64,000 nucleotides of DNA from Mesotaenium endlicherianum (taxonomy: Eukaryota), in assembly GCA_009602735.1 (NCBI GenBank), contig WELA01002258.1, forward strand, positions 202,746 to 266,745, in the 5' to 3' direction. Made by a program: the position numbers and the translations under genes. A model generated the notes under the pieces. It searched no databases, was not told the DNA's origin, and saw only the letters and a program-made list of their open reading frames with translations. Positions 1,642 through 53,883 of the stretch are shown here, piece by piece. Each line of letters opens with the position of its first letter. Position 1 is the stretch's first letter.

Positions 1642-1681
1642 TCACCCCCCCGCCAGAAAAAGCGACGTCTCGGCGCGTCAA

Positions 1682-1810
1682 GTCAGGTCTTACACATGTG
1701 GAGCAGACTAGTCAACAGCTTCAAGTCAGATGCCACACATGTGAAGAGGATTAGTCCAAGGCGCCACGTCAGGTGCTACACATGTAAGGTAGACTAGGCA
1801 AGGTCGTGGG
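1682..1810. repeat. Three imperfect 43-bp tandem repeats in the 3' UTR of B
   Basis: GTCAG.....ACACATGT....AG..TAG units start at 1682, 1725 and 1768. Confidence 0.75.
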
Positions 1811-2404: not shown

Positions 2405-5400
2405 CTAATGTCGTTTTTTCCTCTTTGTGGTTCTTGCGGGCTGCCTCCAAGGGGTCTTCTGCTGCTTCTTGATGGTGGCAGGCTGCCTCCCTGAAGTCTC
2501 CGGGCTTCTAGTAGAGAGACTTCGGGCTGGTCCAAGATGGGGGTTGGCGGCATGGAAGCGCTTCAACTTTCTCTGAACTTTGTCAAGGTAGTGCGCCGCC
2601 ACCCAACTATTCTCTGAATCTGGATATCCTTTCCACTTGATCAAGTATTGCTGCTGTCTCCTGAAATTTCTCATAGCCACTATGTCTTCCACTTTGTACT
2701 CCAAATCATTATCCACTATTGTTGGGGCTGGTGGGGTTGTCACACGTCCTGGGAACTTGTTGTCGGGTTGCACATATGGCTTGAAGAGGGAAGCGTGGAA
2801 TACGGGGTCGATGTGCATAGTCTGGGGAAGTTCTAGCTTGAAAGCAACGGGGTTGACTTGCTGGATAATCTTGAAGGGTCCCAAATACTTGGGAGAGAAC
2901 TTTCTGCCGGCAGGCCTGTTGTTCAGGGAAATATTCTTGGATGATAGTAACACGTTGTCACCCACAATGTATGTAATTTCTCTTCTGGACCTGTTTGCCA
3001 CTCTTGCTTGAGCATCTTGCGCCTGTTATAGAGCTTTCTTCGCTGCTATAAGGGCCGCTTCTAATGTCTCCATAAAATCTGTTGCTGCAGGTACTTCATC
3101 ATGGCCAGCCGTGAAGCTCACCGGCGTGGTTGGATGGAAGCCATAGTTGAGGAAGAATGGGGACTCTTGGGTAGAGGCTTGCGTCGTGTTGTTGTAGGCA
3201 AACTCCAGGGGGGTCAAGTACATGTCCCAATCTTGCTCTAGAGTAGACACGTAGGCCTTTAGAGAGGTCTTTAGGGTACGATTCATACGCTCGGTTTGCC
3301 CATCTGATTGTGGGTGGTAGGCGGTAGACATATCCAGCAATGTACCGAAGTTCTTGAAGAGATTTTTCCAGAAATGGCTTGTGAATCTTGGGTCTCTATC
3401 TGACACAATTCTTGATGGTAGTCCATGGAGTCGGAAGATGTTGTCAAAGATGAGTCTTGCAAGTTGTGGTGCTGTAGCCTTAGTCGTCGTGGGAATAAAA
3501 TGAGCCATCTTAGTAAGTTTGTCCACCACCGTGAGTATTGCATTATGGCCTCGAGGTGTCACGGGCAAGTCCACGATAAGGTCCATTGAGATGTCCGTCC
3601 ATTGTCTTTCGGGGATTGGTAGTGGTTGGAGGAGTCCTCCCGCCTTTTGCGATGATGGCTTGATTCTTTGGCATGTGTCACAGCTCCTGCAGTACTCCTT
3701 GACTTGCATAGACATGCCTGGCCAACAATAAGTCCTAGCTAGAACGCCCGTGGACCTTAGGATTCCAAAGTGTCCTCCAAGAGGGTTGTCGTGTGCTTCT
3801 CGTAGAAGCAAGAGCCGGAGGTCTATGTCATTAGGATCACATCTCTGGCTCGTGTCTTGCCTCACCTAATAATTGCCTTCTTGCTTCTTGTATGGGTCCA
3901 AGGTTGCTTCTCCGTTCTTGTAGTAAGGGTCTCTTTCATAGGCGGCTGAAAATCGAGCTTCCAGATCTGTCTTCAGCGATGTCATCACTGCGTTTAATTG
4001 CAGTCTTGAGAGGGGGTCAGCCGGGTTTGTCTTGCCGGGCTGGTACTGAATTGTGATGTTGTATTGTTGCAAGTATCCGCTCCATCTTGCTTGTCTCCTT
4101 GAGAGATACGGCTGCGTCTGGAGGTGCTTTAACGCCTCGTGGTCCGTGGTGACCAGTACCTTGCGTCCTTCAACGTAGCAGCGCCAAACCTTCAAGGCAT
4201 GTACAATCGCCAATGCCTCTCGCTCCGTGGTTGTGTGATTTTGCTCGGCCGGATTTAGCTTCCTTGACTTGTACGCAATGTGCTGCAGTCCCTTGCCGTG
4301 GTCTTGACGCAGGATTGCTTCTATTGCATAGGAAGATGCATCGGTGATGACATGGAAGGGCCAATCTGGGTTTGGACTTGGGAGTGTGAGCACCAAGTAT
4401 GTGGTCAATTTTCGCTTTAACTCTTGAAATGCCTCTTCCTCTTTCTCTGTCCATGTATATAGGCTGTCCTTCTTGAGTAGATATGTCAGGGGGGCTGCTA
4501 TGTGCGACAAGCCTTGGATGAATTTTCTGTACCAATTGGCAAGTCCCAAGAATGACTGGAGTTCTTTCTTGGTCGTGGGGGTTGGCCATTCCTCCACCAC
4601 CGTGGTCTTCTTGGGGTCCATCTTGATGCCATCAGCAGTCACGTGGAGACCTAGGAACTCCACTTCTTGTTTGGCAAACTCGCACTTTGACTCCTTTGCA
4701 AATAGCTTGTTTTGCTTCAATACTTCAAGGACTTCTTTCAAGTGTCTCGCATGCTCTTCAAGGGTCTTGCTGTAGATAAGGATGTCATCGATGAATACCA
4801 CCACAAATCTGTCCAACATGGGCTGAAATATGGTGTTCATCATAGTCATGAAAGTTGCTGGCGCGTTGGTGAGTCCAAATGGCAGGACCATGAACTCAAA
4901 ATGTCCATATCTTGTCCTGAATGCCGTCTTCTCTATGTCCGGTTCTGCGATGCGAATCTGGTGGTAGCCGCTCCGTAAGTCAATCTTCGTGAAGTACTTG
5001 GCTCCAACCAGCCGGTCCATGAGCTCATCCATGCGCGGCAGCGGGTATCGATTCTTGATGGTGATCTTGTTGAGGGCGCGATAGTCCACACACATCCTCA
5101 AGGTACCATCTTTCTTCTTGACAAATAGCACCGGGGCTCCAAATGGCGACTTGCTAGGTCGAATGAAGCCATGCTCCAGTAGCTCCTTGATTTGCTTCTT
5201 GACTTCGTCTAGCTCCGTGTATGACATTTTGAACGTAGGCCGAGAGATGGGCTTGCTTCCGGGCTCCAACTCTATCTTGTGGTCTGCGAATCTCTTGGGG
5301 GGTAAGCCCTTGGGCAATTCCGGGGAGAATACTTCTTTGTAGTCCTCTAAGACTTCTTGTATCTCCTTGGGAACGGGACTGCCTTCTTGACTCTCAATGT

Positions 5401-5973
5401 CTTTCTTGATGTCTTTTGGCGTGATCAAGGTCAAAAGAAGCTCGTGTCCCTTCCTCACAAGTCTCTTGAGTTGGAGGGCGGACAATAGTATCTCGTGTGC
5501 CGGCTTCTTGATGTCTTGGGTCTGGATATTCTAGATTGCGCGCAAAATACAGATTCTTGAAGTGATGTCATTCTTGATCTTGATAGTACCGGTCCTCCAA
5601 TCAACTTGGGGGTTGTGCTTGGTCAACCAAGGCGTCCCTAGGATGACGTCGTACTTGCCCAATTGCATGGGGGAGAACACTACTCTATCCTTGAAGGACT
5701 TGATAGAGAGTGCCAAGGGGTACGTCTTCTTGGAAGGGGTAGTATAGGAGAATCCATCGGGCATCATAATCTCCTCGTCGTGGTCNAATTGGGCATCATA
5801 ATCTCCTCGTTGTGGTCAAGAGTTCGCATAGTAATACCGTGCTTGGTGGCAAAATCTGCAGCGATGAAGTTGCCTTGAGCTCCGCTATCCACCAAGATGT
5901 GGACCTTCTCTCCTCCAAGGTAACCTCTCAAACTCATTGGGGCTGGAACGTCGTCTTCAACGGGGGTCTCCAC
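2405..5973 (-). pseudogene. pol: Element B pol (PR-RT-RNase H-integrase-chromodomain) with three in-frame stops
   Basis: [34 protein letters not shown] zinc finger; SDRDPRF; HPQSDGQTERMN; KYLGPFKI; chromodomain YKVEDIV..QYLIKWKGYPDSENSW. Stops at 5531, 3866 and 3026. Confidence 0.93.
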
Positions 5974-6181
5974 CTCACTTGTCTTGTTGCCTTCTCGTGA
6001 AGTGGGTCTTGGGGTGGTAGGCTCCTGGCCTACCGGCGCTGTCCAGCCGTCATAAGAGCTTCTTTTTCAGTCGGGGAGAGTCTTGCTTTCACTCCTTGCT
6101 GGTTTCTTGCATCATAAGTGTCATTAGAGGGTCTTCCACTCTTCCGGGCAGCCACGGGGTCCCTTTTNCACGGGGTCCCTT

Positions 6182-7183
6182 TTAATAACTCCGGTTTTCC
6201 ATGGGTGTGGGTCCAGATTTGGATGTGGAAGGGGCTGCGTACACCCGCGTCGCCGGTACCTGTGAAGATGAAGGCACGGAGTGCTTGAAATCCAAGGTAT
6301 CCACCTTTTGGGCCACTTCAATGATCTTTGAGAAGTCCGTCAAGTCGCGTAATTCCACTTCCTTTGCCACCTTGGGTTTGAGGCCAAAGATGTAGCGGTC
6401 AATCTTCTCCTCGAGAGACATGTTGGGGATCTCAAGAGTGAGGGCGTGAAATCTGGATGTATACTCTTGAACGGACGTCGTTTGCTTGAGATGGTGGAGC
6501 TTTCCTCGGGCAATCTTCTCCGCATTGATGGGCATGAATTGCTTCTTGAGGGCCTCACGAAAATCTGCCCATCTTGCATATGATGGTGGGGGCTCTTGGC
6601 CGAGCATGGGGTGCGCCATAGCTTGATATATAGCCGCTTGATAGTTACGCCACCATGATGTTGCTGCTCCACTAAGTAAGGTAACGGCAAAGGGAACGTA
6701 TTCCTCCTCAGGTACTTCAAGGAACGCGAGGTAAGTCTCCACTTGGTAGAGCCATAAATTCAGGTTGGCACCTTTCCCGGGGTTGAAAGTGTCGGGTTTG
6801 CCGGGCTTGATGGGTTTCCTTGCTCTCGTTGGCTCTTGTGGAGGCGCTTGAGCCGGGGCTGGATTTTGAGCATTGCTCGCAATAGGGGCAACCATGGCAG
6901 CCATAGCTTCTCTTGACGCTTGCACGGTTGCTTCATAGGTAGCCAAGCCCACTTGGTTGTGGACGGTCATTATGAAAGCTGCCCACTTATTTGCGGGAAC
7001 TCCTTGTGGTGGGGTCAACTTTTCTATAGCGGCTGCCACGGGATTTGACGGTGCTCCTCCTTGTGGTCCTTCTTGTTGTTGCAGATTTTCTTGAGTGGGC
7101 TCTCCCATCGGCGTTGGAGGAGGGTGTCTTGGAGAAGAAGGGCTTCCTTTGAAAGCTTGCTGTTGGTCTTGAGGATCGGCCAT
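6182..7183 (-). CDS. gag: Element B Gag (3' end damaged)
   Basis: Starts just after the PBS; KPDTF..WL..VE, A.SWW, LKQTTSVQEYTSRF, YIFGLKPKV, PTPME. Confidence 0.88.
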   Translation of the reverse strand: MADPQDQQQAFKGSPSSPRHPPPTPMGEPTQENLQQQEGPQGGAPSNPVAAAIEKLTPPQGVPANKWAAFIMTVHNQVGLATYEATVQASREAMAAMVAPIASNAQNPAPAQAPPQEPTRARKPIKPGKPDTFNPGKGANLNLWLYQVETYLAFLEVPEEEYVPFAVTLLSGAATSWWRNYQAAIYQAMAHPMLGQEPPPSYARWADFREALKKQFMPINAEKIARGKLHHLKQTTSVQEYTSRFHALTLEIPNMSLEEKIDRYIFGLKPKVAKEVELRDLTDFSKIIEVAQKVDTLDFKHSVPSSSQVPATRVYAAPSTSKSGPTPMENRSY

Positions 7184-7206
7184 CTTTTTGTGTTACCAAA
7201 GTGCCT

Positions 7207-7219
7207 AGCTTTGATACCA
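7207..7219 (-). promoter_or_regulatory. Element B primer-binding site (tRNA-iMet type)
   Basis: TGGTATCAAAGCT, 1 nt inside the 5' LTR boundary. Confidence 0.9.
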
Positions 7220-7220
7220 C

Positions 7221-7723
7221 TGTAGTGAAACAGATAGATAAAGTACTTAGTAAAACAGAATATTTTATCTATTCAAGACAAGGATCTTTGAACACAAGTG
7301 GTAGCTTCTTGAAAGAGAGATGGCTTCTTGAAAGTTAATATATTTCTGGATTTTGGCAAGTACAAGAGTGGTTCTGGAATGTTTTTCTATGTTCTAGCTC
7401 TTGCTTATATACTTGCTACATAAGTAATTTCTAAGAAGGTGCTTGTTGATGTGTTGGCACCCAACACATCCCAAAACTTGCCACCTCTTTCTAGAATAAT
7501 GTACACATGTCCTTTTGACCTAAAAATGGCACATTTGACTTTTGCCATGTGGAGTTCTTCTAGGTTTTTCCTCTAACTTCGAAAATGCCTTAGAAGGTTC
7601 AAAAGACACGAACCAAGTCACTAGAGTACCTATTCTCACTTGAACCCACATAATACTACTCCAAACATATTTGAAAACATTAAAATATATGCAATCTAAT
7701 ATATAATAACTCAAATCACTACA
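7221..7723 (-). repeat. Element B 5' LTR (503 bp)
   Basis: TG...CA termini, adjacent PBS, followed by TSD AAGGA. Confidence 0.96.
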
Positions 7724-10189: not shown

Positions 10190-11448
10190 TGTAATGAATC
10201 AGTTCATTATTTATTTAATTAATTGCATATATAAATATAACATTAAATAAGTATTATGTCAGTATACTCACATGTGCGAGTTCATCTAAATGAATGAATG
10301 TTAATGTAATGCGAGTTTACTTACTTCGTCAAAAATGTCAGCAGGATGACTTTTGTATCACAGTGTAGTTTGCTGACTTGTTGGGAAGGTCAGCAGGATG
10401 ACTTTTGTATCATAGTATAGTTTGCTGAGATTTGTATATCAGTTATATATAGGATGTAATATCAGTAGGTTGACATCTAGTAAGCTCTCCTCATATTAGT
10501 CAGTATACTTAGCTTCAGTACGCTGAGGATAGATACATTCATTTAGATTATTATTTGTAGATTGGCACATGTGACCGTAGCATACCGAAAGTCGGAAGGT
10601 CGACTGAGATTCGGTGAACCGATGTCCTACCAGTGTGGTTAACTCCTGGGTGGGCGGAGCCGTCGTCAGTCAACTGAATAATTAGGACTTCAGTCAACCG
10701 ACCAATTAATATGGTCGTTATACCTAGATCCGAGGGTCCCAACTTAACGGGTTTCCCACGAAACGGCGCACCTTGCGCCGTGGTCAACCAGGTGGTCACT
10801 AGGTACATAGCAGGCTGGGATCTCGTGGTCCCTCATTCTGGACAGTAGGCTTTACAGTCGGATTTCTACTTGCAAGTCATGTGTGCACTTTTGGGTTCGT
10901 TCTAATGACCAGCCTTCACGGAAATTAACATGGTTGCTTTGTCTGCGCTCCAAATGGGACAAACTAAGACTTTTCGGAAAGGTCTCGTCAAGATGCATCC
11001 GTTTCCGTTAAGTTTGCTCAATTTGAAGTAGTATTGGCAAAGTTATGCCCTCTGAAATTTTGGGGTCACACAGCGGACAGATTCCATGGTTTTGCACCTA
11101 AGTCAGTGGGATGTGTTTTAGCTACATTATGGTCATCTGAATGAGAGCGCCTTTGCTATTCAGTCCCCTGACGTTGTGCATGTGCTATACATGCTTGCAT
11201 GCCTGGTAGGCAAGAGGCCATGAGTTTCTAAAGGAGAAGCTCTACTCCTCAAGCTCGCCTCTTTCTTGTGCCTTGTATTCGCGTGCAACTATGGCACACT
11301 ACGATGAGTGAATCAAGGGTTATAGATGAGTAAACGGAATTCATTGTAAGGGCAAAGATCGCTCCCTGATTTCACACGCTTCCACCTATCTCTGATTGTT
11401 TATATTTAAATGAAATATAGTAATCTTGAATAAGCAAGATTCATTTCA
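10190..11448 (+). mobile_element. Solo LTR (1259 bp) of a related family, inserted in the chromodomain of A
   Basis: Termini TGTAATGAATC...GATTCATTTCA, TSD CTCCC at 10185-10189 and 11449-11453; the chromodomain of A resumes after it. Confidence 0.88.
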
Positions 11449-11609: not shown

Positions 11610-12022
11610 TTGTCATTTCACTTGACATGGGAAGGTGATAGGAGGCCCTGTCTCCAATTAAGTTGGAGGGAAAATGTGTGAGTAAATGACAGTTAGTGTG
11701 CGAGAAATGGACGAAAATTGACAATAAGGTGACAGCATAGTGCAGATGTGACAGTCAGGCCCACATTAAGCTAAGTTGGAGAGTGCCCACCACTCGGAAG
11801 GAGAAAGGGACCAACACTTCAACAATTCACTTATTCCATCCTGCACACACATTCATCCGTTAATTCTCATTGCACTGCAGCCCCATTGACTCCTAATAAT
11901 CACTCTGTAAGGTAAAATGGGAGCAAACCTACCACCATAATAATACCAACTATTTCTCTTCCTGCATGTCCTGTGACAAAGATTGAGATCCTACTAACTT
12001 ATGCCCTGGTTATATGTGCAAG

Positions 12023-13700
12023 ATGGCTCCCACCACACAAAAGGAAGACAGAAAACGCAAGGCAGAAAGAGTTAGGAGGACAATGGAGCAATACCAGAAA
12101 GAGCTGGCGGCAACGTCCCTCACAAGGCGAGAACAAGATAGGGTCCGCAAACAACAAGAGGCGGCAGAAGAAGCACAGAGGAAGAAGGAGCAAGAGGCGG
12201 AAAGTCTCAGGAAAGTTGAGGAGGAGAGACAAAAGAAATAACAAGAGGAAGCGGCGTCAGCAGAGGAGGAGAGAAGGAAAAAGGCTGAAGCTGAGAGGCA
12301 AAAGAGCCTGGCACTTACAGATATACTGTGGTGGATGCCCAAACCTTTGATAATCTGAAGGAAGCAATACTGGCAGCCCAGGAGATCAACAAGGTGGAAC
12401 AGAGAACAATGCTACAGAGGTAAGGAAATGAAGCTCTGGATAGGTACATTGAGACACAAACGGGTGTGGTCCTCCACGAAGATTATGCTAAGATGGTGGG
12501 GTATACGGCAGAGCAGGCATGGTTTCTTGCAGATGACTCATAAGATAAGCCATTACCAGTGCCTGGCATAGTGGGGGATCAGAGACTCATTAGGATGGTG
12601 AGCATGCAGCCCGATAGCTTTAAAAATACAATATTTTACCTGACATTGCTGCCAATCTACAATGAAGTTGAGAGGAGGAGCTGGGCGTACTTGGCCAAGG
12701 AAATAGGGCAGCAGATGTTCTCCCCCCGCTGGTTTCCTTGTAAGCTGAAAAAGGCTGAGCATGGGCCACAGTACTACCAGCAGCTCACAGACTAGAGGTG
12801 GATGATCGTCACGAACAGAAAGCAGGAGTGTGACCGGGCTCACCGAGATGACTTCCACTATGGGCTGCACGGCTACCTCATCCTACCACCTCACATTGAC
12901 CCTTGGGACCCCAGGCTTAATGGGTGCCTGAGTAATATGAATGCAGAGACCAAGGAGCACAAGCGGAGGGGAAGGGACTATTTCTCTAAAGGGAAGCATG
13001 CCTTTGTCAAATGGGCAAAGAATGCAAGCCGGATAGATATCAGCAGGCTGAAGGCCAAGCAACCTCCAGCTCGTCCTAAGAAAGGGAGGTCAGTAGATTT
13101 TTCCATGTCTACTAGGGAGCAAGATGACTTGGTGGACGAAACCCCTACCCTCAGAGAGGAGGAAGATGAGGAGGATGAGGAAGAAGAATAGGGCAGAAAA
13201 GAAGCATCAAGTGCTGGTGCTTAGGAGACTCAGGGGCAGGCAGAAGCAGGGACCCTCAGGGCGCCAAAATCAGGTGTATGGAATGTGATCCCTACTGTGG
13301 GGGCAACAGGACCCCGCACTTGTTCTCCCAGTCCACCTGCCCAAACAGGGGAAGAAGCTGATCAGCCTGTACTTGGCAGCAGAGAAAGGCAGAAAACCCC
13401 AGAGGACAGGGGTAGAAGGAGAGGGACACGCGGAGTAGCCAGAGTTATGCCGGCCTCCCCCTTCGTTCAAGGACATGTACCTCTTGCCAATGTATTTTAG
13501 CATCCTACTGGAATGCCTGTCTATGTAAGGATCAACACCCAAGTGGTTGAAGAGCAGGCTACAATCCTTTGTTCTCCCCAAGGTTCAACTTTAGAACAAA
13601 CAGGGTTCTTTAGAAGGCCAGCTGACAGACCTAGAGGACTGTCCAGATCTAGGTCCATATCTCAGTCTCCTGATCCTGGAGCCCCAGGAACAACCTTTAA
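12023..13700 (+). pseudogene. Element A ORF3 (extra ORF), with several stops and frameshifts
   Basis: MAPTTQKEDRKRKAE... collinear with ORF3 of C over its whole length. Confidence 0.9.
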
Positions 13701-13933
13701 GACATCAAAACCATCCTCTAGTCGAGCCTTGCTGGAGGTCTCTCTGTTTGCACCCCACAACGGAAGTGGACTAAGGGTGGAGGTGACAGTTCACAGTCAC
13801 TAGTGATCCCCATAGCTAGGCAACAGTGTTGAAGCAAGAGACAGGCGGTAGGAGGTTAGTTTTTATAGTTTCCTTACCAGCTAACTTTACTGCTTAAAAT
13901 TGTCGAGGCGACAACAATTTAAGTTAGAGGGAT

Positions 13934-14503: not shown

Positions 14504-15221
14504 TGAAATGAATCGACTTACCAAATAGGCGATTAACAATTAATAAAGATCTTTATATCAGCAAGTAATCTTATGGTATTTTCGTTAACTAGTTAAACGG
14601 CAAAAGACAATACACTAGCAGGGAATAATACTCGTAAGTCAAATGCGAGTAAACTAGCATCAATGATGCAAATCAGTAAACTCATACATAAGCAAGGTTA
14701 GAAGACAGTGCGTATCAATGGCTTCTCGCCTTGGATTCAGAGTTCTCTCAGTAAGCTGTACAAAGAGTTGGCCTCGTTTCCGAATGCCGAACTCGAGAGC
14801 AATGCCTAGCATATGTACATGGAATGAGTTTACTGTTCAACGGTCAGTGCGATGGCACCGCCTACCCGGGAGTTAACCACGTTGGTAGGACCTCGGTTAA
14901 CCAAATCCACCGCCATCTCCCATCATCCCGAATAGCCATCCATCATAGGGATGTCATCTGGCTATTCATCTAGCATATCGCACTTAGATGCATATCAAGG
15001 CAGTTCGCTGCTACCGAGTACGGAAGTCAGCTTGCTGTCAAAGAATGTGTCAGCAAGCTGACTTATATGGACTTTCAGCCTGCTGCTTTCGACTGAGTCA
15101 TCAAACTGATAATTATGTAAAGTCCAGCAGACTGACTATTAACTAAAGTTCAGCAGGCTGAACTTAATTAACTATTATATTTAAATGAATATTATATCCA
15201 CTAATATACTGATTCATTACA
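14504..15221 (-). repeat. Element C 3' LTR
   Basis: Direct repeat of 22577-23297; TGTAATGAATC...GATTCATTTCA on the minus strand. Confidence 0.97.
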
Positions 15222-15257
15222 ATCCCTCCAACTTAACTTGTTGTCGCCTCGACAACA
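15222..15257 (-). promoter_or_regulatory. Element C polypurine tract with an upstream 8-bp-stem hairpin
   Basis: TGTTGTCG-agg-CGACAACA then TTAAGTTGGAGGGAT abutting the 3' LTR; the same arrangement occurs in A and E. Confidence 0.85.
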
Positions 15258-15334: not shown

Positions 15335-17011
15335 TTAAGGGGTTGTTCCTGGGGCTTCAGGATCAGGAGACGGAGATCTGGACCTAGATCTGGACAGCCC
15401 TCTAGGTCTGTCAGCTGGCCTTCTAAAGAACCCTGTTTGCTCTAAAGTTGGCCCTCGGGGAGAACGGAGGATGGTGGCCTGCTCTTCAACCACTTGGGTG
15501 TTGATTCCCACATAGACAGGCATTCCAGTAGGATGCTGAAATACATTGGCTAGAGGTACATGCCCCTGAGCGGAGGGGGAGGCTGGCATACCTCTGGCCC
15601 ACCCGCGTGTCCCTCTTCTGGCACCCCTGTCCTCTGGGGATTTCTGTCTGTGTCTGCTGCCCAGTACAGTCAGATCAGCTTCTTCCCCTGCTTGGGCAGG
15701 TGGGCTGGGGGAGCGAGCGCGGGGTCCAGTTGTCGCCATAACGGGGATCACATTCCAAACACCTGATCGTGGTTCTTTAGGAAGCGCCCCTGCCTGTCCC
15801 TGGGTATCCTGAGTACCTGCTGCTGATGCTTCTCCTCTGCCTTGTTCTTCTTCCTCATCCTCCTCATCCTCCTCCTCGGAGAGAGTAGGGGTCTCGTCCA
15901 CTAAGTCGTCCTGCTCCCTAGTAGACATGGAGTAGTCTACCGACCTCCCTTTCTTAGGGCGCGCTGGAGGTTGCTTGGCCTTCAGCCTACTGATATCTAT
16001 CCGGCCTGCATTCTTTGCCCATTTGACAAAGGCATGCTTTCCCTTAGAGAAGTACTCTCTTCCCCTCCTCCTATGTTCCTTGGTCTCTGCATTCATATTG
16101 CTCAGGCATCCATTCAGCCTGGGGTCCCAAGGGGCAATGTGAGGTGGTAGGATGAGATAGCCGTCTAGGCCATAGTGGAAGTCATCCGGTTGGGCTCGGT
16201 CACACTCCTGCTTCTTATTTGTGACGGTCATCCACCTCCAGTCTGTTGGCTGCTGGTAGTACTGGGGTCCGTGCTCAGCCTTCCTCAGTTTACACGGGAA
16301 CCAGTGGGGAGAGAACATCTGCTGTCCTGCTTCCCTGGCCAAGTACTCCCAGCTCCTTCTCTCAACTTCATTGTAAGCTGGCAGGAGTGTGAGGTAGAAT
16401 ACCGTATCCTTAAAGCTATCGGGCCGCATGCTCACCATCCGGATGAGTCTCTGATCTCCCACTATTCCCGGTATGGGGACCGGCTTGTCCTCTGAATCAT
16501 CTGCGAGATACCGGGCCTGCTCTGCTGTATAGCCCACCATCTTAGCATAATCTTCGTAAAGGACCACGCCGGTGTGTGTCTCGATGTACCTGTCCAGTGC
16601 TGTAGCTCCTTCCTTCTGTAGCAGTGTTGTCTGTTCCAGCCTGTTGATCTCCTGGGCTGCCAGCAATGCTTCCTTCAGGTTATCGAAGTTTTGGCCACCC
16701 ACCACAGTATACCTGTAAGTGGCCAAGCTCTTCTGTCTGTCCGCTTCAATCTTTTTTCTTTTCTCCTCTTCTGCCGCTGCCGCTTCTTCTTGCTGTTTCT
16801 TCTGTCTCTCCTCCTCAGCCTTCCTGAGGTTTTCCGCTTCCTGATCCTTCTTCCTCTGTGCCTCTTCTGCCGCCTCTTGTTGCTTGCGGACCCTTTCTTG
16901 TTCTCTCCTGGTGAGGGACGTCGCCGCCAGCTCCTTCTGGTATTGCTCCATTGTCCTCCTGGCTTCTTCTGCCTTGCGCTTTCTGTCCTCCTTTTGTGTG
17001 GTGGGCGCCAT
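15335..17011 (-). CDS. Element C ORF3: 558-aa protein of unknown function (coiled coil, globular core, acidic tract, RS/SP-rich tail); not env-like
   Basis: Intact ORF between pol and the 3' LTR; homologous decayed copies at 12023-13700 and 25677-27371 start at the same ATG position. Confidence 0.88.
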   Translation of the reverse strand: MAPTTQKEDRKRKAEEARRTMEQYQKELAATSLTRREQERVRKQQEAAEEAQRKKDQEAENLRKAEEERQKKQQEEAAAAEEEKRKKIEADRQKSLATYRYTVVGGQNFDNLKEALLAAQEINRLEQTTLLQKEGATALDRYIETHTGVVLYEDYAKMVGYTAEQARYLADDSEDKPVPIPGIVGDQRLIRMVSMRPDSFKDTVFYLTLLPAYNEVERRSWEYLAREAGQQMFSPHWFPCKLRKAEHGPQYYQQPTDWRWMTVTNKKQECDRAQPDDFHYGLDGYLILPPHIAPWDPRLNGCLSNMNAETKEHRRRGREYFSKGKHAFVKWAKNAGRIDISRLKAKQPPARPKKGRSVDYSMSTREQDDLVDETPTLSEEEDEEDEEEEQGRGEASAAGTQDTQGQAGALPKEPRSGVWNVIPVMATTGPRARSPSPPAQAGEEADLTVLGSRHRQKSPEDRGARRGTRGWARGMPASPSAQGHVPLANVFQHPTGMPVYVGINTQVVEEQATILRSPRGPTLEQTGFFRRPADRPRGLSRSRSRSPSPDPEAPGTTP

Positions 17012-17012
17012 C

Positions 17013-17115
17013 CTGCACATGTAACCAGGGCACAAGTTAGTAGGATATGGACCTTTGTCATAGGGATTGCAGGAAGTATGTTAGTATTTAGTATAGTGGC
17101 TTCGCTGCTGTTTAC
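17013..17115 (-). other. Putative 103-nt spliceosomal intron in the 5' UTR of ORF3
   Basis: AAG|GTAAAC donor, TACTAAC branch site (17036-17042), TGCAG|GATG acceptor; equivalent signals in A and E. Confidence 0.6.
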
Positions 17116-17215: not shown

Positions 17216-17230
17216 TCCCCTCCAACTTAA
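17216..17230 (-). promoter_or_regulatory. Internal duplicate of the PPT just downstream of pol
   Basis: TTAAGTTGGAGGG is identical to the terminal PPT; also present at 11658-11670 (A) and 25416-25428 (E). Confidence 0.75.
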
Positions 17231-17278: not shown

Positions 17279-20200
17279 TTATGGAGGGACTCCAGCGGCC
17301 CGAAGGTGGAACCGTGTCAACGCCCCTTTGGCATTGGTCAAGTGGTCCTTAAACTCCCAAGTGTCCCCAGAGGCATCGTAACCCTTCCATCGAATGAGGT
17401 ATTTCATGACATATTTAGACGATCGACGGACCGAGCGAGCGTCTAAAATCTCATCGACCTCATATTCCTCAGGGTCGCCGTCCCGGACAGCGGGGACCGG
17501 TCCCGGTTGGACAGGGAACCGACCTGTGAACAGTGTATCACCTTTGATGTACGGTTCCAGGAAGGAGACATTAAAGACCGGGTGCCCCTTGTATTCAGCT
17601 GACATGTTCAGTTTGTAAGCATTCTGACCGACACGACGGACCACCGAATATGGACCGACCCAGACAGGGCCAAGCTTTTTCTTGACCACACCAGGGAGGT
17701 ACAGGTGCTGAGAATGCAGTTTGACTAAATCCCCCTTGGAAAATGTCAGTTCCCGACGGTGTTGATTAGCGTATTTTTGTTGGTTTTCTTGGGCCGTGTG
17801 CAAGTTTCGTTGGACTTCTGACAGGGTGTCAGCAAACTCCTGAGTTAACTGGAGGGAGACCGGGTTGTCAATCCCTTCAGGGTGAGTTAAAGATTCCCCT
17901 AGCACATCTAGAGGAGACTTAGGGACTCTACCCAGGCTGAGTTCAAAAGGAGTTTTGCCCGTTGACGCGTGCACCGCACTGTTGACCGCAAACTGAATTT
18001 GAGGCAACAGGTCATCCCAATTATCTTGTTTTTGGTTAATATATGCTCTCAGCACCTCCTGCAGAACTCGGTTAGTTCTTTCAGTCTGCCCATCAGTCTG
18101 AGGGTGGTTTGCTGTGCTGAGCAGCTGTTTGACTCCCATTAACCCCATTAAAGCTCTCCAGAACTTAGAGGTGAATTTTGAGTCTCTGTCTGAGATGATA
18201 TTAGAAGGGAGCCCATGTTGGCATACTACATGGTTGTAAAACTGTCTCGCTGTTTCGAGTGCAGTCACTTTGACAGTTGTGGGGATAAAAATGACCATTT
18301 TTGTCAGTTTATCCACGACTACCAGTATTGAATCATGCCCGTTGGCAGTTCTTGGTAGTGAGACCACCCAGTCCATGGATATAGTTTCCCAGCGTCCCGC
18401 TGGGATGGGTAGCGGTTGCAAGAGACCTCCGGGTGGTGTGTGCCGAGACTTATTTCTCTGACACTGGTCACAGGACTTGACATATTTCAAGACCTCCCGG
18501 GGTAACCCCTCCCAATGATAATGTTTTGCCAGTTTGCCAACAGTTTTGGCCTGCCCCAAATGTCCACCCAGGAGACTGTCATGAGCTTGACTCAGTAAGA
18601 GAGACCTTATTTCCAAATTATTAGGAATGACCAGCTTCAGCCTGCCTGAAGTGGTTTCAGTCACCCAGACCCCTCCCTTGAGCTTATACCCGAGTGCAGT
18701 AGCACGACACACACCAGTAGTGGGGCTGGGCTCAAATGTTGGGTCAGAAAGGTAGGCTTTCCTAAGTTGTTCAAGGAAGGACTTTTTCACCTTTAGTGAA
18801 GTGAGTGCACACAGGACTTTATCTACAGCATGCTGACTAAAGTTCCTTTCTTGCAAGTCAGGTCTTCTAGAGAGTGCATCAGCAGGATTCAACTTCCCTG
18901 GTTTGTAGTCGATCTGGACTTGGAACTGCTCCAGCATCTGGCTCCAGCGGTTCTCCCTCCTCGACAGCTTGGACTTCTTCTGAAAGTGGGTCAGAGCTAG
19001 ATGATCTGTAATCACCTTAAAAGCTTTACCATGTAAGTATGCTCTCCACTGTTTGAGTACATGAATGATAGCTAGCAGCTCTTTATCATGCACTGAGTAA
19101 TTAATCTCCGCTGGATTAAATTTCATAGACTCATACAACACAGGATGCCACTCCTGCCGTACCTTACCATCCTTTGTGGTTTTGTCAGCAGGCTGCAACA
19201 AAATAGCACCCATGGCAAAATCAGAGGCATCAGTAACCACCTGCACCGGTTTGCTGGGGTCATACACGGCTAGCACTGGGGCAGAACAAAGGGCATCTTT
19301 AAGGGTCTGGAAGGCAGCCTGCTGCTCTTCCCCCCACACATACCCGATGTCTTTCTTAGTAAGGTCAGTCAGTTTACTGGCCTTTGTGGAATAATTCTCA
19401 ATAAATCTCCTATAGTAGTTAGCCAACCCGAGGAAGGATCTAACTTCAGAGACAGACTGTGGTACTGGCCAGTCCCTTATGGTCTGGACTTTCTTAGGAT
19501 CCACACTGATGCCCTCTTTACTGACAACGTGGCCTAAGAATTCAATACTTTCCTTAAAGAAATCACACTTGCTCATTTTAGCATACAAGTGATTTTTCCG
19601 CAGAGTGTCCAGCACTTTCTTTAAGTGTTCAGTGTGCTGAGCTTCATCTTTAGAGAAAATTAAAATATCATCCAGGAAAACTTGCACAAACTTATCCAAA
19701 TAAGGTCTGAAAATGTCATTCATAGCACCCATAAAGGTAGCAGGAGCATTAGTCAGTCCAAATGGCATCACGTTGAACTCATAGTGTCCATAACGTGTGC
19801 GGAAAGCAGTCTTGTGTTCATCCCCCTCAGCAATTCTGATTTGATGATAACCACTCTTGAGATCTATCTTACTGAACACCTTAGCGCCAGACAGGGTATC
19901 AAGCAAGTCCTCGATTCTGGGTAAAGCATACTTGTTCTTTACTGTAATTCTGTTCAGGGCTCTGTAATCCACACACATCCGCATACTGCCATCCTTTTTC
20001 TTAACAAATAGGATAGGTGCGCCGTACGGTGATTTACTGGGAGAAATGTAACCATTTTCCTCCAGCTCTGCAATCTGTGTTTTCAACTCCTCGCTCTCCA
20101 AATAAGACAAGCCATAAGTGCGTTGCCAGGGTGGCTGGCTACCAGGTAATAGATCAATCCTATGATCTACTTCCCTTTTAGGGGGTAGTCCTGGAGGCAT

Positions 20201-21088
20201 GTTAAACACATCAGTGTACTGAGCAACAATTTTTGCAGCAGTAGGGTGCTCCGGAGGGCTTACCTTTTTCTCAACCACTTCTTCAGGTTGAGGAGGTACC
20301 TCTCTTAGCAGCAGACAGAACATTCTGTCTTCCTTCTGGTTCCAGCTTTTGACGAACTCCATTGCATTCAGCAACTTGCATCCTTCTGGAAGCCTCTTCT
20401 TTTCCTTCATTTGCCATCCACACAGGACAAGAGGAAGAGCACTGGTGGGTGCCAAGTCAGTCTGCCCATCACTGGCTCCTCTCACTTTAACTGTACCTCT
20501 GCTCCAACACACTTCAGCTTGATGTCTATTAAGCCAGGACCTGCCTAGCACGAGATCATAAAAGCCAGTGTTGAGTACCTCAAATGTAAGCGTTTCAGTT
20601 AGAACTGCAATGCCAGAACCTAACTGGACCTCAATAGGCTTGGTTATAACTCCTCCCGGGATACTTGAGGCATCTCCAAGGAATATTTTTCTATTCCCTT
20701 GGGTGACAGTAGGCAGCCTTAGCCGCTTAACTAAGTCCTTGTGAATAAAAGTATGTGACGCCCCTCCGTCAACAAATGCCCTCACCTTCCTACCTGCAAT
20801 CATGCAATGCAGTAGGATAGGGGGGACTGTCTTTTCCTGACTTTCGCATTGTTCTCCTGACGTAGCAAAGAAATGTTGGACATCAGGTGGAACAAGAGCA
20901 TCCAGAGTGTGCACTCTCTGGACGTCTATATTACTGATGGTCTCCTTTATCTGTTTGTCAGGCATGCATAGTGAATCCAGTTCAGCAGGACCCATAATAC
21001 CTGCTACGAGGGCAGCTAGTGACGACTCACTATCTCTAGCATCCTCACAGTCAGTAGACTGGATTACTGACTGTTGCTGTCTTTTAAA
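17279..21088 (-). CDS. pol: Element C Pol (PR-RT-RNase H-integrase-chromodomain), intact, probably entered by a -1 frameshift from gag
   Basis: 1238 aa from the Met at 20995, and the frame stays open back to the slippery site; [29 protein letters not shown] core, GPY, chromodomain [20 protein letters not shown]. Confidence 0.95.
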
Positions 21089-22542
21089 GGCTGGTCTTTT
21101 CTCTCGACCTTAGGCAGGTGCTTGACCGGACACTGTTCTCTGTAGTGGCCTTTCTGCTGACAATGGTAGCAAGTAGATTTTGCTGAGGCTGGTCTCGGCT
21201 TAGTCCTACCACCACCCCTTCCATAGCCACCTCGAGAGGGACCACCTCTACCTCTAGACTGAATAGCATTGTACTCATACTCATATTCATCACCCTGATT
21301 ATCCTCAGCCTGGTCTCCTTCAACTGCATTGTAGGAACCGTGGGGCTTTTTGACAATCTTAGACACCAAAGCGTTACTCTGGCGCTTGTGATTGAACTGC
21401 TGCTGATCCCAGGCGTCAGCATCCTGGATCAAGTCAGCCAGTTTCTCATACTTTTTCTCAGCAAAATGACCAGAGACCTCGGATTTCAAGCCATACCTGA
21501 AGTATGCTATCCTATACCGTTCTGGCAAATCAGGCTGCTTCATCATGTTCTCTTGGAACTTTTGAGCAAACTCAGCAACTGAAGTGGTCTGCTTCAGTGT
21601 CAGGGAGATCATCGCATAGATAGCTTTCTCCTGCTGGTTGATGACATCAAACTTCTCATGCAACTTCTCGACAAACTCTACCCACGTAGGGTCACCGAGT
21701 TGCCGAGCCTTACGCTCTTCCTTCCAGTAAAGCCACCAGTCTGCGGCACTGCCTTTCAGTAGCGCACCGGTGTGCCTGACCTTCTCGTAATCTTGCAGTT
21801 CTGGGTAGTTCTCCAGCCACTGCTCAACATCCGCGAGAAACTTGATCAGGTAATATTTTCTGTTTCCCTCAGGATCATAGTCCTGGGGAGGTTTCGGCTT
21901 GGGCTTACTAGGCCCTCGGCCACCACCACTAGTGGTGTGAGACCCCAGTTGGTCTCTGTCCCGGAGTAGGGACATTATGATTCTTTTGTCCTCCTGCTGG
22001 GACTGATACATGGTCGCCATTTGCGACTGCATCTGAACGAACAATGCTCCCAAGTCTACATTTTGGGGTGGTAGATTAGCAAATGCAGCAGCAGCATTGG
22101 CATCTACTCGCTGAGTAGTGTCCTCAACAATCCCTCTTGCTCCTGCAGCAGCAATTCCTGCCGCATTCAGCCGGTCACGTATTTGACCTAGGGGTACATT
22201 GAGTTGTACGGCAGGAGGTGGGTTCAGAACATTGGCCCTTGATGCCATAAGTTCTTCAACAGTGCGCTCGTCAGCTGGCTGTCCTTCCCTCCTTTGTATA
22301 TCTTCAGCGGCCTTTGCTACTTGTTCAGCTTCTAGTCTGGCTATCTCCTCCTCAGCTTGCTGAGCTGCGACTGAGGCAATAGCAGCTGCCTCATCTGCAG
22401 CCTCCCTAGCTGCAGTATCCGCTACTGCTTCCGAATAGGTACGGTTTCCCGCTACATGGCTTTCCGCCTGGTTTTCGACATTCTCGTTATCCTGGTTCTC
22501 CATGTCTCGGGAGTTGCTAGTTTGAGACCTTGTCCTTACCAT
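21064..22542 (-). CDS. gag: Element C Gag with CCHC zinc knuckle (492 aa)
   Basis: Starts about 20 nt after the [38 protein letters not shown]. Confidence 0.95.
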
Positions 22543-22561
22543 ACAAAGAAGACTGTGATAA

Positions 22562-22575
22562 CTGCTCCGATACCA
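22562..22575 (-). promoter_or_regulatory. Element C primer-binding site (tRNA-iMet type)
   Basis: TGGTATCGGAGCAG, 1 nt after the 5' LTR. Confidence 0.9.
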
Positions 22576-22576
22576 C

Positions 22577-23297
22577 TGAAATGAATCGACTTACCAAATA
22601 GGCGATTAACAATTAATAAAGATCTTTATATCAGCAAGTAATCTTTATGGTAATTTCCGTTAACTGGTTAAACGGCAAAGGACAATACACTAGCAGTGAA
22701 TAATACTCGTAAGTCAAATGCGAGTAAACTAGCATCAATAATGCAAATCAGTAAACTCATACATAAGCAAGGTTAGAAGACAGTGCGTATCAATGGCTTC
22801 TCGCCTTGGATTCAGATCTCTCTCAGTAAGCTGTACAAGAGAGTTGGCCTCGTTTCCGAATGCCGAACTCGAGAGCAATGCCTAGCATATGTACATGGAA
22901 TGAGTTTACTGTTCAACAGTCAGTGCGATGGCACCGCCTACCCGGGAGTTAACCACGTTGGTAGGACCTCGGTTAACCAAATCCACTGCCATCTCCCATC
23001 ATCCCGAATAGCCATCCATCATAGGGATGTCATCTGGCTATTCATCTAGCATATCGCACTTAGATGCATATCAAGGCAATTCGCTGCTACCGAGTACGGA
23101 AGTCAGCTTGCTGTCAAAGAATGTGTCAGCAAGCTGACTTATATGGACTTTCAGCCTGCTGCTTTCGACTGAGTCAGCAAACTGATAATTATGTAAAGTC
23201 CAGCAGACTGACTATTAACTAAAGTTCAGCAGGCTGAACTTAATTAACTATTATATTTAAATGAATATTATATCGACTAATATACTGATTCATTACA
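22577..23297 (-). repeat. Element C 5' LTR
   Basis: Direct repeat of 14504-15221, followed by TSD TCTAG. Confidence 0.97.
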
Positions 23298-24785: not shown

Positions 24786-25419
24786 AGTGTGCAGGAGCAA
24801 GCTTTATGACCTAGGCCATGAGAAGAGTAAGGTGAGGCCTAGCTATTGGTGCGCAATGTGTGGAGTAGCGTTTTGCCCCGCGCCTTGCTTTGAGGAGTAC
24901 CATACCAACAGGCACATAGCACATGTAGATAGTGGCCCCTACAGGTTGAGTAGCAATAACAAGTAGGACTGTAGAGCAGAGGAACTGCAACAAAAACATA
25001 TATGAAAGACATGGTGCTTCATAAGCAGTGCAGCATCATGTGTGCAAAGCTGTCAATTCTGCAATATTTTGCAAATAATAATTTGTTTTTCATCATTTTC
25101 ATTGATTATTTTTATCTCAATATTTTTCTGTAAGTAAAGTAGCACCTTATTTTCAAGCTCCAATTTACAGATTACTATTTGCATGTGTCAAAGTTGGCTC
25201 TATTTGCTCGTTTCTTGTTACTGTACACACTTTGTACGGAAAGTACACCTTACCTTTCCAAAAATTGCGGGCCACATGGCAAGTGCAATACTTTGTGATG
25301 TAAGCTCTCTTATGGTCAATCACACATAGTCATAGCTTCACTGGGTTATTTCAATATAGTGTGACTTAGGTGGTGCATTATTGGACCATATATGGTCTTT
25401 TCCTCGAGAGATCTATTAA
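24786..25419 (+). mobile_element. Probable 3' end of a piggyBac-like DNA transposon (Cys-rich C-terminal domain 24786-24966, then terminus and TTAA)
   Basis: VCR...PSYWCAMCGVAFCPAPCFEEYH resembles the piggyBac transposase C-terminal Cys-rich domain; palindrome GACCATATATGGTC at 25384-25397; TTAA at 25416-25419 where element E resumes. Confidence 0.65.
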
Positions 25420-28347
25420 GTTGGAGGGAGTGTAACACATCCCCGTCGAGCACAACTTAAATTTACATAAGCACTTCTGCACACTCGACTGCCCTCACAA
25501 CTCACTTTACATTTTGCATCGCTACTCCCTTACACTCAAAACTTTACTCAGGTAATATCGGGTGTATGTGGGTTTTGCACTTGGGAACACTCTGGTTATT
25601 GCGCTTACTTGATGCTATACTCGATACGCATATGCCTGGAATTACACTAATACACATGTGTATGCGTGTGAGCAGGATGCCTACCAACCAGAAAGAAGAC
25701 AGGAAGCGCAAGGCTGAACTGGCTCAAAGGGAGCTAGAACGACATCGCCAGGAGATTGCTCGGACATCCCTCTCGAGAAGGGAAGAAGAACGAGCTCGTT
25801 GACAACAAGAGGAGCAGAGGAAAAAGGAACAAGAGAAAGCCGAGGAGGCCAGATTGAGGAAAGAACAGGAGTATGCTGCTGAAGCAGAAGGACTCAGTAA
25901 ATTGGAGGAAGAAAGGTTGAGGAAGGCTGAGGAGGCCAAGAGGTAGGAGTGGGCTACTTACAGGTATACTGTGGTGGGCCATAATTTTAGTAAACTTAAG
26001 GCAGCTTTACTGGTCGCTCAGGAGATCAACAAGGACACTGAGTTGAAAGTGCTCCAGAAGGAAGGGGAAGGGGCCCTAGACAAGTATATTGAGACTTACA
26101 CGGGTCTAGTCCTCTACGAAGATTATGCCAACATGGTGGGATACACAGAGGATGAGGCAGCAGCTCTGGCCCTTGATGGAGAGTCTACACCAGTCCAGGT
26201 GCCTTGCATAGCAGGCAGCCACAGGGTTATCAGGATGGTGTCTACGGAGGCAGACAGCTTCAAGGATGTCAAGCACTATCATATGCTGAGTCCATTCTAC
26301 GTTGAGGTGGAGAGAAAAAGCTGGAAATATCAGGCCAAGGAGACAGGCCAGCAGATGTTTGCCCCCCACTGCTTCCCTTGCCCATTGACCAAGACGGAGC
26401 ATGGACTTAAGAGTACTACCAACACCCCACAGACTGGAGATGGATGACCATCACCAACAAGAAGCAGGAGTGCGAGCCAGCCCACCCCGACAATTTCCAT
26501 CATGATTTGGATGAATTCCTCATCCTACCTCCTCGTATTGCCCCTTGGGATCCCAGGCTCAACCATTGCCTCTCCAACATGAGCTCCTGGATGAAGAATT
26601 ACGGGAAGCGGGGGCGGGATTATTTGTCCAAGGGGAAGCACGCTTTTGTCAAATGGGCAAAGAATGAAGGGCGAATAGAGCTCAGCAAGCTGTGGGTTCA
26701 GCAACCCCCAAAGAGATCCAAAAAGGGGCAATCAGTTGACTACTCTAGAATTGCTAGGAAGTTAATTGACATGGCGGATGCCACCCCAACCCTCTCAGAA
26801 GAGGAGGATGAAGAAGAGGAGGAACAGGAACAGGAACAGGAACAGGAACAGGTACTAGGAGAGGCCTCTATTTTTGGAAGAGCACAGGCACAGGAGGTAG
26901 CTGAGAAGGTACCGTCTCCAGGGAGGCGAGATAAATGGGTGGTAACACCAACAGTGAAGCCCACTTCACCTCCACACAGAGACCCTCTAGCCCTCTAACT
27001 CAAGTCTTCGAGGAGGAGGAGCTTACTGTTCTGGGCAGCAGACCTACACGTCGATCTCTTGATGACAAGACAGCCGGGAGGGCAGCCAGAGAAGTTGCCA
27101 GGAGTGTGGCGGCAACCCCCTCAACTATAGCAATGCTGCTCTTGCCAATGTGTTCTAGCATCCTATGAAACTCTCAATTTATGTGGGGGTCAGCACACAG
27201 GTTGCTGAGGAAAGGACAGGAGTTTTGCTGCAGGCCCCCAGGGGTCCTTCCTTAGCGGAAGTAGGGGTGTTTAGGAGGCCAACTGAGAGGGTTAGAGGAC
27301 TGTCAATAGAATCCAGGTCCAGGTCTAGGTCTTAATCTCCTGATCCTAGGGCTCCAGGAACATCTCTCTAATGTTAGTAAACCATCCTTTCGTCAACCTT
27401 GCTGGAGGTCTCTTTGTTTGCATTGCACAATGGCAGTGGGCTGAGGGTGGAGGTGACAGCTTGCTGTTACTAATGATCCCCACAGCTAGGCAGCAATGTT
27501 GAAGCAAGAGGCAGTGGTAGGAAGATCAGTACTGTGAGCCTAATGGACTCTTGAAGTTCATAGTTATTGTTGTCAAGGCGACAATAAGTTAAGTTGGAGG
27601 GATTGTGATGAATCAATATATTATTGGACATAACATTCAGTTTGTAATAAATCAATATATTGTTGGATACAATATTCATTTGAATATGTTAGCTTATTAT
27701 ATTCCGTCAGCTAAATTTTAGTTAACATTAATTCTGCTGGACATAAAGGTAATTATCGAGTATAATGACTCACTCGATGGCAGCAGGCTGAAGTCAACTT
27801 AGGTCAGCTTGCTGACACATTCTTTTACAGTCAGCTGACTGTTGTACTCGGTAGCAATGAACTGCCTAGATATGCATCTAAGTGTGATATGTTAGATGAA
27901 TGGCCAGAGGACACCCTTGGATGGATGGCAATTCGGGATGATGGGAGATGGCGGTGGATTTGGTTAGCCGTGGTCTTGCCGACGTGGTTAACTCCCGGGT
28001 AGGCGGTGCCATCGCACTTGCCCTTGAACAGTAAACTCATTCCATGCACATAGGTTACAGATGCTCTCGAGTTCGGCTTTTGGAAAACAAGGCCAATTCT
28101 CTTGTACCGCTTACTGAATCCAAGTCAAGAAGCCATTGATACAAATTGTCGTCTAACCTTACTTATGTATGAGTATTCTGATTGCATGACTTGCTCGTTG
28201 ACTTGCATTTGACTGACGAGTATTGAAACGCTAGTTGTGAAGTCTTTTGCTGATTACTAGGTAATAAAAAAACCCTGTAAAATTATTTGTTGACGTACAG
28301 ATCTTTTATTACTTGTTAATCGTCTACTCGTAAGTCGATTCATTTCC
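25416..28347 (+). mobile_element. Element E: 3' part (internal PPT, ORF3, PPT, 3' LTR 27604-28347) of a more diverged family member
   Basis: ORF3 homology; PPT TTAAGTTGGAGGGAT at 27589-27603; LTR TGTGATGAATC...GATTCATTTCC. Confidence 0.88.
25677..27371 (+). pseudogene. Element E ORF3 (diverged homolog, with stops and frameshifts)
   Basis: MPTNQKEDRKRKAE; YIETYTGLVLYEDYANMVGY; LILPPRIAPWDPRLN; KGKHAFVKWAKN. Confidence 0.9.
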
Positions 28348-28523: not shown

Positions 28524-28759
28524 AGATGCAACACTAGGCAGTTTGCTAATATCGTGCGCGGCAATCAGTTGACTGTCAAAGAATGTGTCAGCAAGTTGAC
28601 CTATAGTGGAATTCAACCTAGTCTACCCAAGTGAGTCATTATACTAAATGTCATTAAAAGTTCAACAAATTTAATATCACCTAAAGTTCAGCAGACTGAA
28701 CCTAATGAGCCATTACATTTAAAGGAATACTATATTTACCAATGTATTGGTTCATTATA
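28524..28759 (-). repeat. Degenerate partial LTR of the C family
   Basis: Contains the CTGTCAAAGAATGTGTCAGCAAG core and a decayed terminus GGTTCATTATA. Confidence 0.7.
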
Positions 28760-28762
28760 GAT

Positions 28763-29019
28763 TATCATGAATCATTATATTGGCAAATATATTGATTTAT
28801 AGGTGATTGTAATAATTTAACAAGTTCCATCTGCTGAACTTTAGTTCATGTTTAGACCGGTCGACTTTCAAGAACGTTCATTTTAATGACTCAGCCGATA
28901 GCAACAGGCTATATTCTACTTAACTCAGCTTGCTGACACATTCTTTGACGGCTAGCTGGCCTCCTTAACCCGTACTAGCGAACTGGTTGAGAATGCATCT
29001 AATTATGTTATGCTAGACA
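28763..29019 (+). repeat. Degenerate C-family LTR, 5' portion, interrupted by element F
   Basis: Decayed start TATCATGAATC and the CTTGCTGACACATTCTTTGAC core. Confidence 0.7.

Positions 29020-53804: not shown

Positions 53805-53883
<79 letters not shown>

Follow-up and report, generated by a model that had tools for sequence, protein, structure and literature searches.

A long-retained third gene located after pol and before the 3' LTR in a chromovirus family of Mesotaenium endlicherianum

We analyzed a stretch of 64,000 nucleotides from Mesotaenium endlicherianum (contig WELA01002258.1), hereafter the window, in which positions are counted from the first letter. Several Ty3/gypsy elements lie here, and we refer to them by letters (A to F). 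Element C is a minus-strand chromovirus that is complete, with LTRs, gag, pol and a third open reading frame, ORF3. Its features, in the direction of transcription, are as follows:

22577..23297, minus strand: 5' LTR of C (from LTR comparison)
22564..22575, minus strand: PBS of C, which we take to be of the tRNA-Met type
21064..22542, minus strand: gag of C, 492 aa, with Ty3 capsid and zinc knuckle
17279..20995, minus strand: pol of C, 1238 aa, with protease, RT, RNase H, integrase, SH3 and chromodomain
15335..17011, minus strand: ORF3 of C, intact, 558 aa from the ATG at 17011, 3' of pol
15222..15236, minus strand: 3' polypurine tract (PPT) of C, with a short hairpin ahead of it (about 15254-15240)
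14504..15221, minus strand: 3' LTR of C (from LTR comparison)

The original prediction of an intact 558-aa sense ORF after the chromodomain of C is confirmed: the frame at 15335-17011 shares its sense with gag and pol, and the latter closes with a Chromo domain (PF00385, E 2e-8 with Pfam). Counted from its first ATG, ORF3 covers 15335-17020 and has 561 aa. The two LTRs differ at 12 of 718 sites (98% alike), and the TSD TCTAG flanks C on both sides. The pol frame is open for ~39 codons 5' of the pol ATG, and the overlap of gag and pol contains a slippery heptamer, TTTAAAA at 21088, as the predicted site of a -1 frameshift from gag to pol.

The setting is a nested one. C is inserted in the 3' LTR of element A, which is further split by element B and by a 1.26-kb solo LTR, and which adjoins element D, whose gag is truncated. 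The solo LTR (10190-11448) lies inside the integrase of A; it belongs to a related family, has the same termini, is flanked by a TSD of 5 bp and exceeds the 720-bp LTR of C in length. Element B (1139-7723) is a complete Ty3/gypsy element without a third ORF, and element F (29766-33250) is a truncated one; each has a PBS that we likewise assign to the tRNA-Met type. At 28524-29017, two partial LTR starts of the family are joined head to head in inverted orientation, one of them with the PPT-side hairpin region. A host gene resembling anion/boron transporters (PF00955) occupies 48816-57522; its last ORF runs into ~1100 low-complexity residues, and a search with the transporter ORF gave 0 matches among 7997 candidates.

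C has the traits of a Ty3/gypsy chromovirus, namely gag, PR-RT-RH-INT with a C-terminal chromodomain, LTRs ending in TG..CA, a 5-bp TSD, a PBS and a PPT. Three residues in the pol sequence, Y, W and Y, presumably form the aromatic cage of its chromodomain. In REXdb, according to sections of PMC6317226, chromodomains with an aromatic cage occur only in non-seed plants. A quick tree was built from the RT-RNase H of 99 rows, consisting of C, B, F and the 96 of 120 hits that were long enough (the 24 short hits were dropped). C falls outside a 47-row angiosperm clade (SH-aLRT 100), amid environmental and Closterium sequences without starred grouping, and its best identity is 62%. The rows of this tree bear species names rather than clade labels, and the 120 hits include no labelled Chlamyvir or Tcn1 references. 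Judged by chromodomain type and RT neighbors, the host would be an alga or another non-seed organism. Membership in Tekay is rejected because the RT of C does not group with seed-plant chromoviruses. The tRNA-Met-type PBS departs from the Tcn1 clade, in which self-priming without a tRNA PBS is the state of 83% of members (REXdb, PMC6317226 supplement 3). The overlapping gag-pol frames of C are Tcn1-like.

Two other copies of ORF3 are found in the window, in elements A and E:

about 12014/12023..13695/13700, plus strand: ORF3 of A, broken, 3' of the end of A pol (11606)
about 25656/25677..27365/27371, plus strand: ORF3 of E, broken and diverged; the 3' LTR of E reaches 28346

The copy in A has 83-88% amino-acid identity to that of C, with 7 stops and 1 frame change, and the copy in E has 44-60% identity by piece, with 4 stops and 3 frame changes. 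Both copies had been proposed to occupy the same position as in C. This holds for A, where ORF3 follows pol. For E, no pol is present 5' of ORF3 within the window, so the shared position applies to the 3' side only (PPT and LTR). Upstream of E ORF3 is a remnant of a piggyBac-type transposase C-terminal zinc finger (24787-24963; PF13842, E 0.009, below the cut-off), which is cut by element D. The six core motifs said to be common to the copies all match C and E, but A is exact for only three of the six; similarly, an RSRSRSPSP tail is exact in C but not in A or E.

The regions around these genes show two further peculiarities. A and E have in common a 3' UTR of ~217 nt (13700-13920 and 27371-27590), 85% alike in part. 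That of C is 99 nt, although A ORF3 is far closer to C, which may reflect a deletion in C or recombination. Moreover, the LTRs of C and E (the latter at 27604-28346) are only ~16% different, while dS in ORF3 is near saturation; this may reflect strong constraint on the LTR or LTR exchange.

The ORF3 protein consists of a charged, coiled-coil-like segment (residues 1-95; 28% K/R, 25% D/E), a conserved core (96-345) with 6 Trp, 7 His and 3 Cys, an acidic tract (346-395; 36% D/E) and a basic, Pro/Arg-rich C-terminal tail that ends in SRSRSRSPSP. The RS tail is only 10 residues long and is degenerate in A. Basic NLS-like clusters occur at 10, 42, 71, 314 and 353, a pattern that is common in charged proteins. 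On this composition, ORF3 is likely to be a nuclear protein. As had been proposed, it has no transmembrane segment, the best 19-residue Kyte-Doolittle mean being 0.73.

We searched for relatives of this protein with several methods. A word-index search with residues 90-350 confirmed 0 of 1367 candidates, and phmmer over 1.84 billion representatives gave 0 matches at E 0.001. The best ESM Atlas scores, 0.84 and 0.88, are within chance, Pfam gave sub-threshold matches only, and the best matches in PHROGs and in a PDB profile search had E-values of 0.19 and 0.12 (HNF6), respectively. Of 81 metagenome and 5 viral pattern matches, none was confirmed. With the integrase as query, 36 metagenome matches led to two short distant loci, neither with a match to ORF3, and 0 of 2 viral matches were confirmed. 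ORF3 matched neither the 120 pol relatives nor the element's own Gag. Two AlphaFold2 models, one of the core (pLDDT 38.5) and one of residues 95-200 (pLDDT 41.5), were both unreliable. Foldseek with the core model found nothing in PDB or BFVD at E 0.001, a blank that for a query of pLDDT 38.5 is no sign of a new fold, and the best Z of 3.9 from VIA-align with the same model is not meaningful. The sequence searches, with no match to an env family in Pfam, thus agree with the earlier remark that ORF3 belongs to no recognized family. We found no ORF3 of such a kind described for algal chromoviruses in the open-access literature. As far as these searches reach, ORF3 appears to represent a new orphan protein family.

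We used dN/dS to assess selection on ORF3 (Nei-Gojobori counts over ungapped codons, stops left out, with bootstrap intervals). The ratio is 0.19 between C and A (95% interval 0.14-0.25; 541 codons), 0.20 between A and E, and 0.16 between C and E (95% interval 0.10-0.22; 470 codons), where it is rough because dS, at 1.7, is near saturation. Comparison genes gave 0.19 for pol (C-A) and 0.19 for gag (C-D). Within ORF3, the core (96-345) has a ratio of 0.15-0.16; linker and tail have 0.20-0.30, so these parts are selected too. The two shifted frames gave 1.4 and 2.0, versus 0.16-0.20 in frame. A gene on the opposite strand is rejected as the origin of the codon bias, since the three antisense frames contain 9, 17 and 24 stops. 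Contigs of three other runs also yielded variants; of the 20 inside ORF3 among those listed (36 further rows lie beyond the listing), 15 are synonymous, against an expected fraction of 0.23 (p 1e-6).

The original prediction that ORF3 is selected was to be abandoned at a dN/dS near 1, and the values obtained were 0.16-0.20. Purifying selection thus acts on ORF3 with the strength found for pol, and on these ratios a recent passive capture is rejected. We therefore regard ORF3 as a long-retained, element-encoded accessory gene of a chromovirus family, with a probability of roughly 0.9.

The sequence between pol and ORF3 has two properties that the original prediction missed and that constitute a new observation, namely splice-like signals and a second PPT:

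17013..17115, minus strand: predicted 5'-UTR intron of C ORF3, 103 nt (sequence signals)
11912-12022, plus strand: predicted intron of A ORF3, 111 nt (AG/GTAA, TACTAAC, AAG/ATG)
25552-25675, plus strand: predicted intron of E ORF3, 124 nt (AG/GTAA, CTAAT, and a CAG one base ahead of its ATG)
17216..17230, minus strand: internal PPT copy of C, 49 nt past the pol stop
11658, plus strand: internal PPT of A, between the pol end and ORF3
25416, plus strand: internal PPT of E, upstream of ORF3
27589, plus strand: 3' PPT of E, 3' of ORF3

In C, the signals are an AG/GTAA donor at 17115, TACTAAC at 17042 and a TGCAG acceptor one base before the ATG at 17011. The acceptor of A is AAG rather than YAG. 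The spacer of E has no blastn match to that of C, yet donor, branch-like site and acceptor are all there; these three features occur jointly in 3.5e-5 of 200,000 shuffles of the E spacer, with windows chosen post hoc from C. TACTAAC occurs five times in the window, counting both strands, and three of these lie inside predicted ORF3 introns. A consensus donor, G/GTAAGT, is located in the U5 of C at 22595, upstream of the PBS, and GGTAAGT is found at the same place in U5 in both C LTRs, A and D. Ungapped contigs span the predicted intron, and the three contig runs list no joint. Given these contigs and the retention of the predicted intron in all three copies, the genomic RNA is evidently replicated in unspliced form.

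A second exact PPT 13-mer is situated upstream of ORF3 in all three copies, at the same 49 nt past the pol stop in A as in C. In E, the internal PPT is followed by TGTAA, which is the geometry of a true PPT/LTR junction and suggests that ORF3 came into the element within an older and longer LTR. The E internal PPT and the next 30 nt also form a hairpin (25416-25460), whose far arm is a reversed PPT-like sequence. The spacers before ORF3 contain no TATA-like box. Between the two kinds of role first envisaged, the splice signals and second PPT would weakly favor RNA processing over anti-silencing.

We examined three poly(A) runs with the same species label, sampling 6-12% of each run at 90% likeness. 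The element received 232, 336 and 192 reads, which map to LTR, gag and pol and are mostly 90-99% alike. Between 15492 and 17111, there are no poly(A) reads in any of the three runs, where ~15-17 ORF3 reads per run are expected at 0.55 of pol depth; in one run that was re-mapped (X23), there are also no ORF3 reads at 80% likeness. No RNA joints are among those listed in the three runs. In the sampled runs, we detected no ORF3 mRNA and no full-length RNA from copies that bear ORF3, and splicing of the ORF3 transcript is accordingly stated here as a prediction from its signals. The lack of ORF3 RNA in these runs argues against constitutive promoter activity and against a twin gene expressed by the host. 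On the LTR itself (22474-23297), poly(A) reads in all three runs have a common loose end at the LTR boundary (24-63 reads), which points to read-through at one other LTR copy.

The element is present in 20 of 24 listed runs, from seven studies and under five organism labels; some of these runs may be the source sample, and no RNA run is among those that the index lists with the element. In one run (X5), a single contig is continuous from the pol stop into ORF3, and in this and two other runs (X9, X12) the depth of ORF3 is like that of the pol end. In another (X1), the summed contig depth of ORF3 is 0.56 of that of pol, which is not a copy number; relatives of pol without ORF3, or with a diverged ORF3, may exist.

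We tentatively propose, on the splice architecture and the make-up of the protein, that ORF3 acts in RNA export or splicing control of the element's unspliced RNA, like CERV or Rev; this is a possibility that we hold with less than even confidence. ORF3 would be translated from a spliced subgenomic RNA, the acceptor beside its ATG being used with either the U5 donor or the local donor. Use of the U5 donor would remove PBS, gag and pol and yield an mRNA that is not reverse-transcribable. If the acceptor is used, the genomic RNA must escape splicing, and a nuclear ORF3 protein might protect or export it, in the way that CERV serves Cer1 and Rev serves HIV-1. The coiled coil may oligomerize, the basic core may bind RNA and the RS/SP tail may serve as a phosphorylation switch. 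However, splice-like motifs as short as these could serve no more than a 5'-UTR intron in an internally promoted gene, whatever its function. A bolder and rather doubtful extension is that the element is a green-lineage "complex" chromovirus with an independent version of the Rev/CERV logic, in which the U5 donor gives a non-replicable mRNA for a new-fold nuclear exporter of the unspliced genome, the gene derives from an old LTR and the PPT is kept as an internal primer.

The main rival readings are anti-silencing and trans-activation. It is somewhat unlikely that ORF3 is instead an anti-silencing or chromatin factor, comparable to VANC of VANDAL or a viral RNA-silencing suppressor, whose expression would rely on an internal promoter and involve a short 5'-UTR intron. 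Such a factor would be in keeping with the NLS-like clusters, the coiled coil and the acidic tract, and the element's genes are CpG-depleted (o/e 0.40-0.48, versus 0.74 for the host ORF), as expected under methylation. Sections of PMC13547354 report that VANC is predicted to oligomerize via a coiled coil, and sections of PMC11728184 propose a silencing role for Tekay extra ORFs. However, ORF3 has no PMD/MAIN-type or dsRNA-binding match in Pfam, and the lack of ORF3 RNA in the sampled runs implies no constitutive promoter of its own under those conditions.

The Tas protein of foamy viruses is an LTR trans-activator, in a layout that combines an internal promoter with a 3' accessory gene. That ORF3 is a transcriptional trans-activator of this type, with a foamy-like internal PPT and an internal promoter, is distinctly unlikely. 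Its acidic tract does adjoin the basic core, and an old U3 promoter may lie at the internal PPT that precedes TGTAA in E, but the spacers are without a TATA-like box, no DNA-binding family was matched (HNF6 being the best in PDB) and no transcript start is seen in the sampled runs.

More unlikely still is a particle or integration cofactor, which would help the cDNA complex into the nucleus or act jointly with the chromodomain in targeting. Selection equal to that on pol would be consistent with this, and the conserved internal PPT could make a cDNA flap, a structure linked to HIV nuclear import and proposed for EVADE in sections of PMC7197481. However, the sequence offers no positive evidence for it, and the sister chromovirus B has no such ORF in the ~760 nt after its pol, so the core cycle does not need ORF3.

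Passive cargo, whether a recently captured host gene or a decaying insert, is very improbable. Two of the three copies are broken, and the ORF3 depth in X1 would fit pol relatives without the gene. Nevertheless, dN/dS of 0.16-0.19 over dS up to 1.7 largely refutes this explanation, no expressed host copy was found at 80% likeness in the re-mapped run, and GC3 in ORF3 is 0.57, like the element, versus 0.70 for the host ORF. Finally, an env-like membrane protein, although position and predicted splicing match the env-like ORFs of Athila and Bagy2 (sections of PMC7264820), is hardly credible and is rejected given the charged N-terminus, no hydrophobic segment and no env family match.

Thousands of extra ORFs of plant retrotransposons have been catalogued without an established function. 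ORF3 is directly testable, as it combines selection equal to that on pol with a young copy that is intact and with splice sites that are predicted precisely. Should ORF3 prove to export genomic RNA, Rev and CERV would have a counterpart in the green lineage; should it counter silencing, VANC would have one among retrotransposons.

The premise that chromoviruses are normally gag-pol only proved too strong. In REXdb, 18% of 782 Tekay elements have a sense 3' extra ORF (eORF-3'F), and none is recorded for Chlamyvir, Tcn1, Galadriel, Reina or CRM (PMC6317226 supplement 3). Sunflower Tekay elements have conserved, NLS-bearing 5' extra ORFs with coils (sections of PMC11728184). Sense 3' ORFs, splicing in Bagy2 and the idea of a Rev-like role are reviewed in parts of PMC7264820, a figure legend of PMC2864245 gives fungal and spikemoss elements an additional ORF of unknown function, and parts of PMC7197481 describe internal PPTs and spliced Athila RNA. 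The REXdb authors themselves ask, in a section of PMC6317226, whether extra ORFs have any function.

As characterized in sections of PMC6317226 and PMC7264820, eORF-3'F or aORF-3S genes resemble ORF3 in position, orientation, length (>250 codons), occurrence across family copies and having no conserved domain. The Athila and Bagy2 3' ORFs have spliced expression (sections of PMC7264820), a likeness that for ORF3 is predicted only. ORF3 is unlike plant aORF-3S in that its RT is outside the seed-plant clade, it has no transmembrane segment and a second PPT lies upstream of the gene; REXdb has no eORF-3'F for the non-seed clades Chlamyvir and Tcn1 (PMC6317226).

CERV of C. elegans Cer1 is, in sections of PMC10309623, the one tested non-env 3' ORF product; it is spliced, nuclear and required for genomic RNA export. 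Like CERV (517 aa), ORF3 is an orphan non-env 3' product, of similar size, with an N-terminal part that is helical in CERV and coiled-coil-like in ORF3, an NLS-like motif and a spliced mRNA (for ORF3, a predicted one). However, the same sections describe for CERV N-terminal exons shared with Gag, a Cys loop and a G-like domain, and a function demonstrated by experiment, whereas ORF3 starts at an ATG of its own and is not similar to Gag, its core has only 3 Cys, and its role is proposed from sequence. Family, profile and fold searches gave no sequence or fold link from ORF3 to CERV, Rev or an RNA-binding family.

The group 2 5' ORF of sunflower Tekay is, like ORF3, a conserved chromovirus accessory with an NLS, coils and long disordered parts; it is found upstream of gag in a seed-plant clade (sections of PMC11728184), and our searches gave no sequence match between it and ORF3. 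Grande gene23 and other antisense 3' ORFs share with ORF3 an accessory protein in the 3' internal region that is nuclear (for ORF3, probably so) and has no known homolog. According to the same sections of PMC7264820, gene23 is antisense, belongs to a non-chromovirus and is ubiquitously transcribed from its own promoter, whereas ORF3 is sense and silent in the sampled runs. The arrangement of ORF3, a sense gene after pol and before the 3' LTR, is therefore of an already known kind, to which ORF3 would add an orphan protein family that appears to be new.
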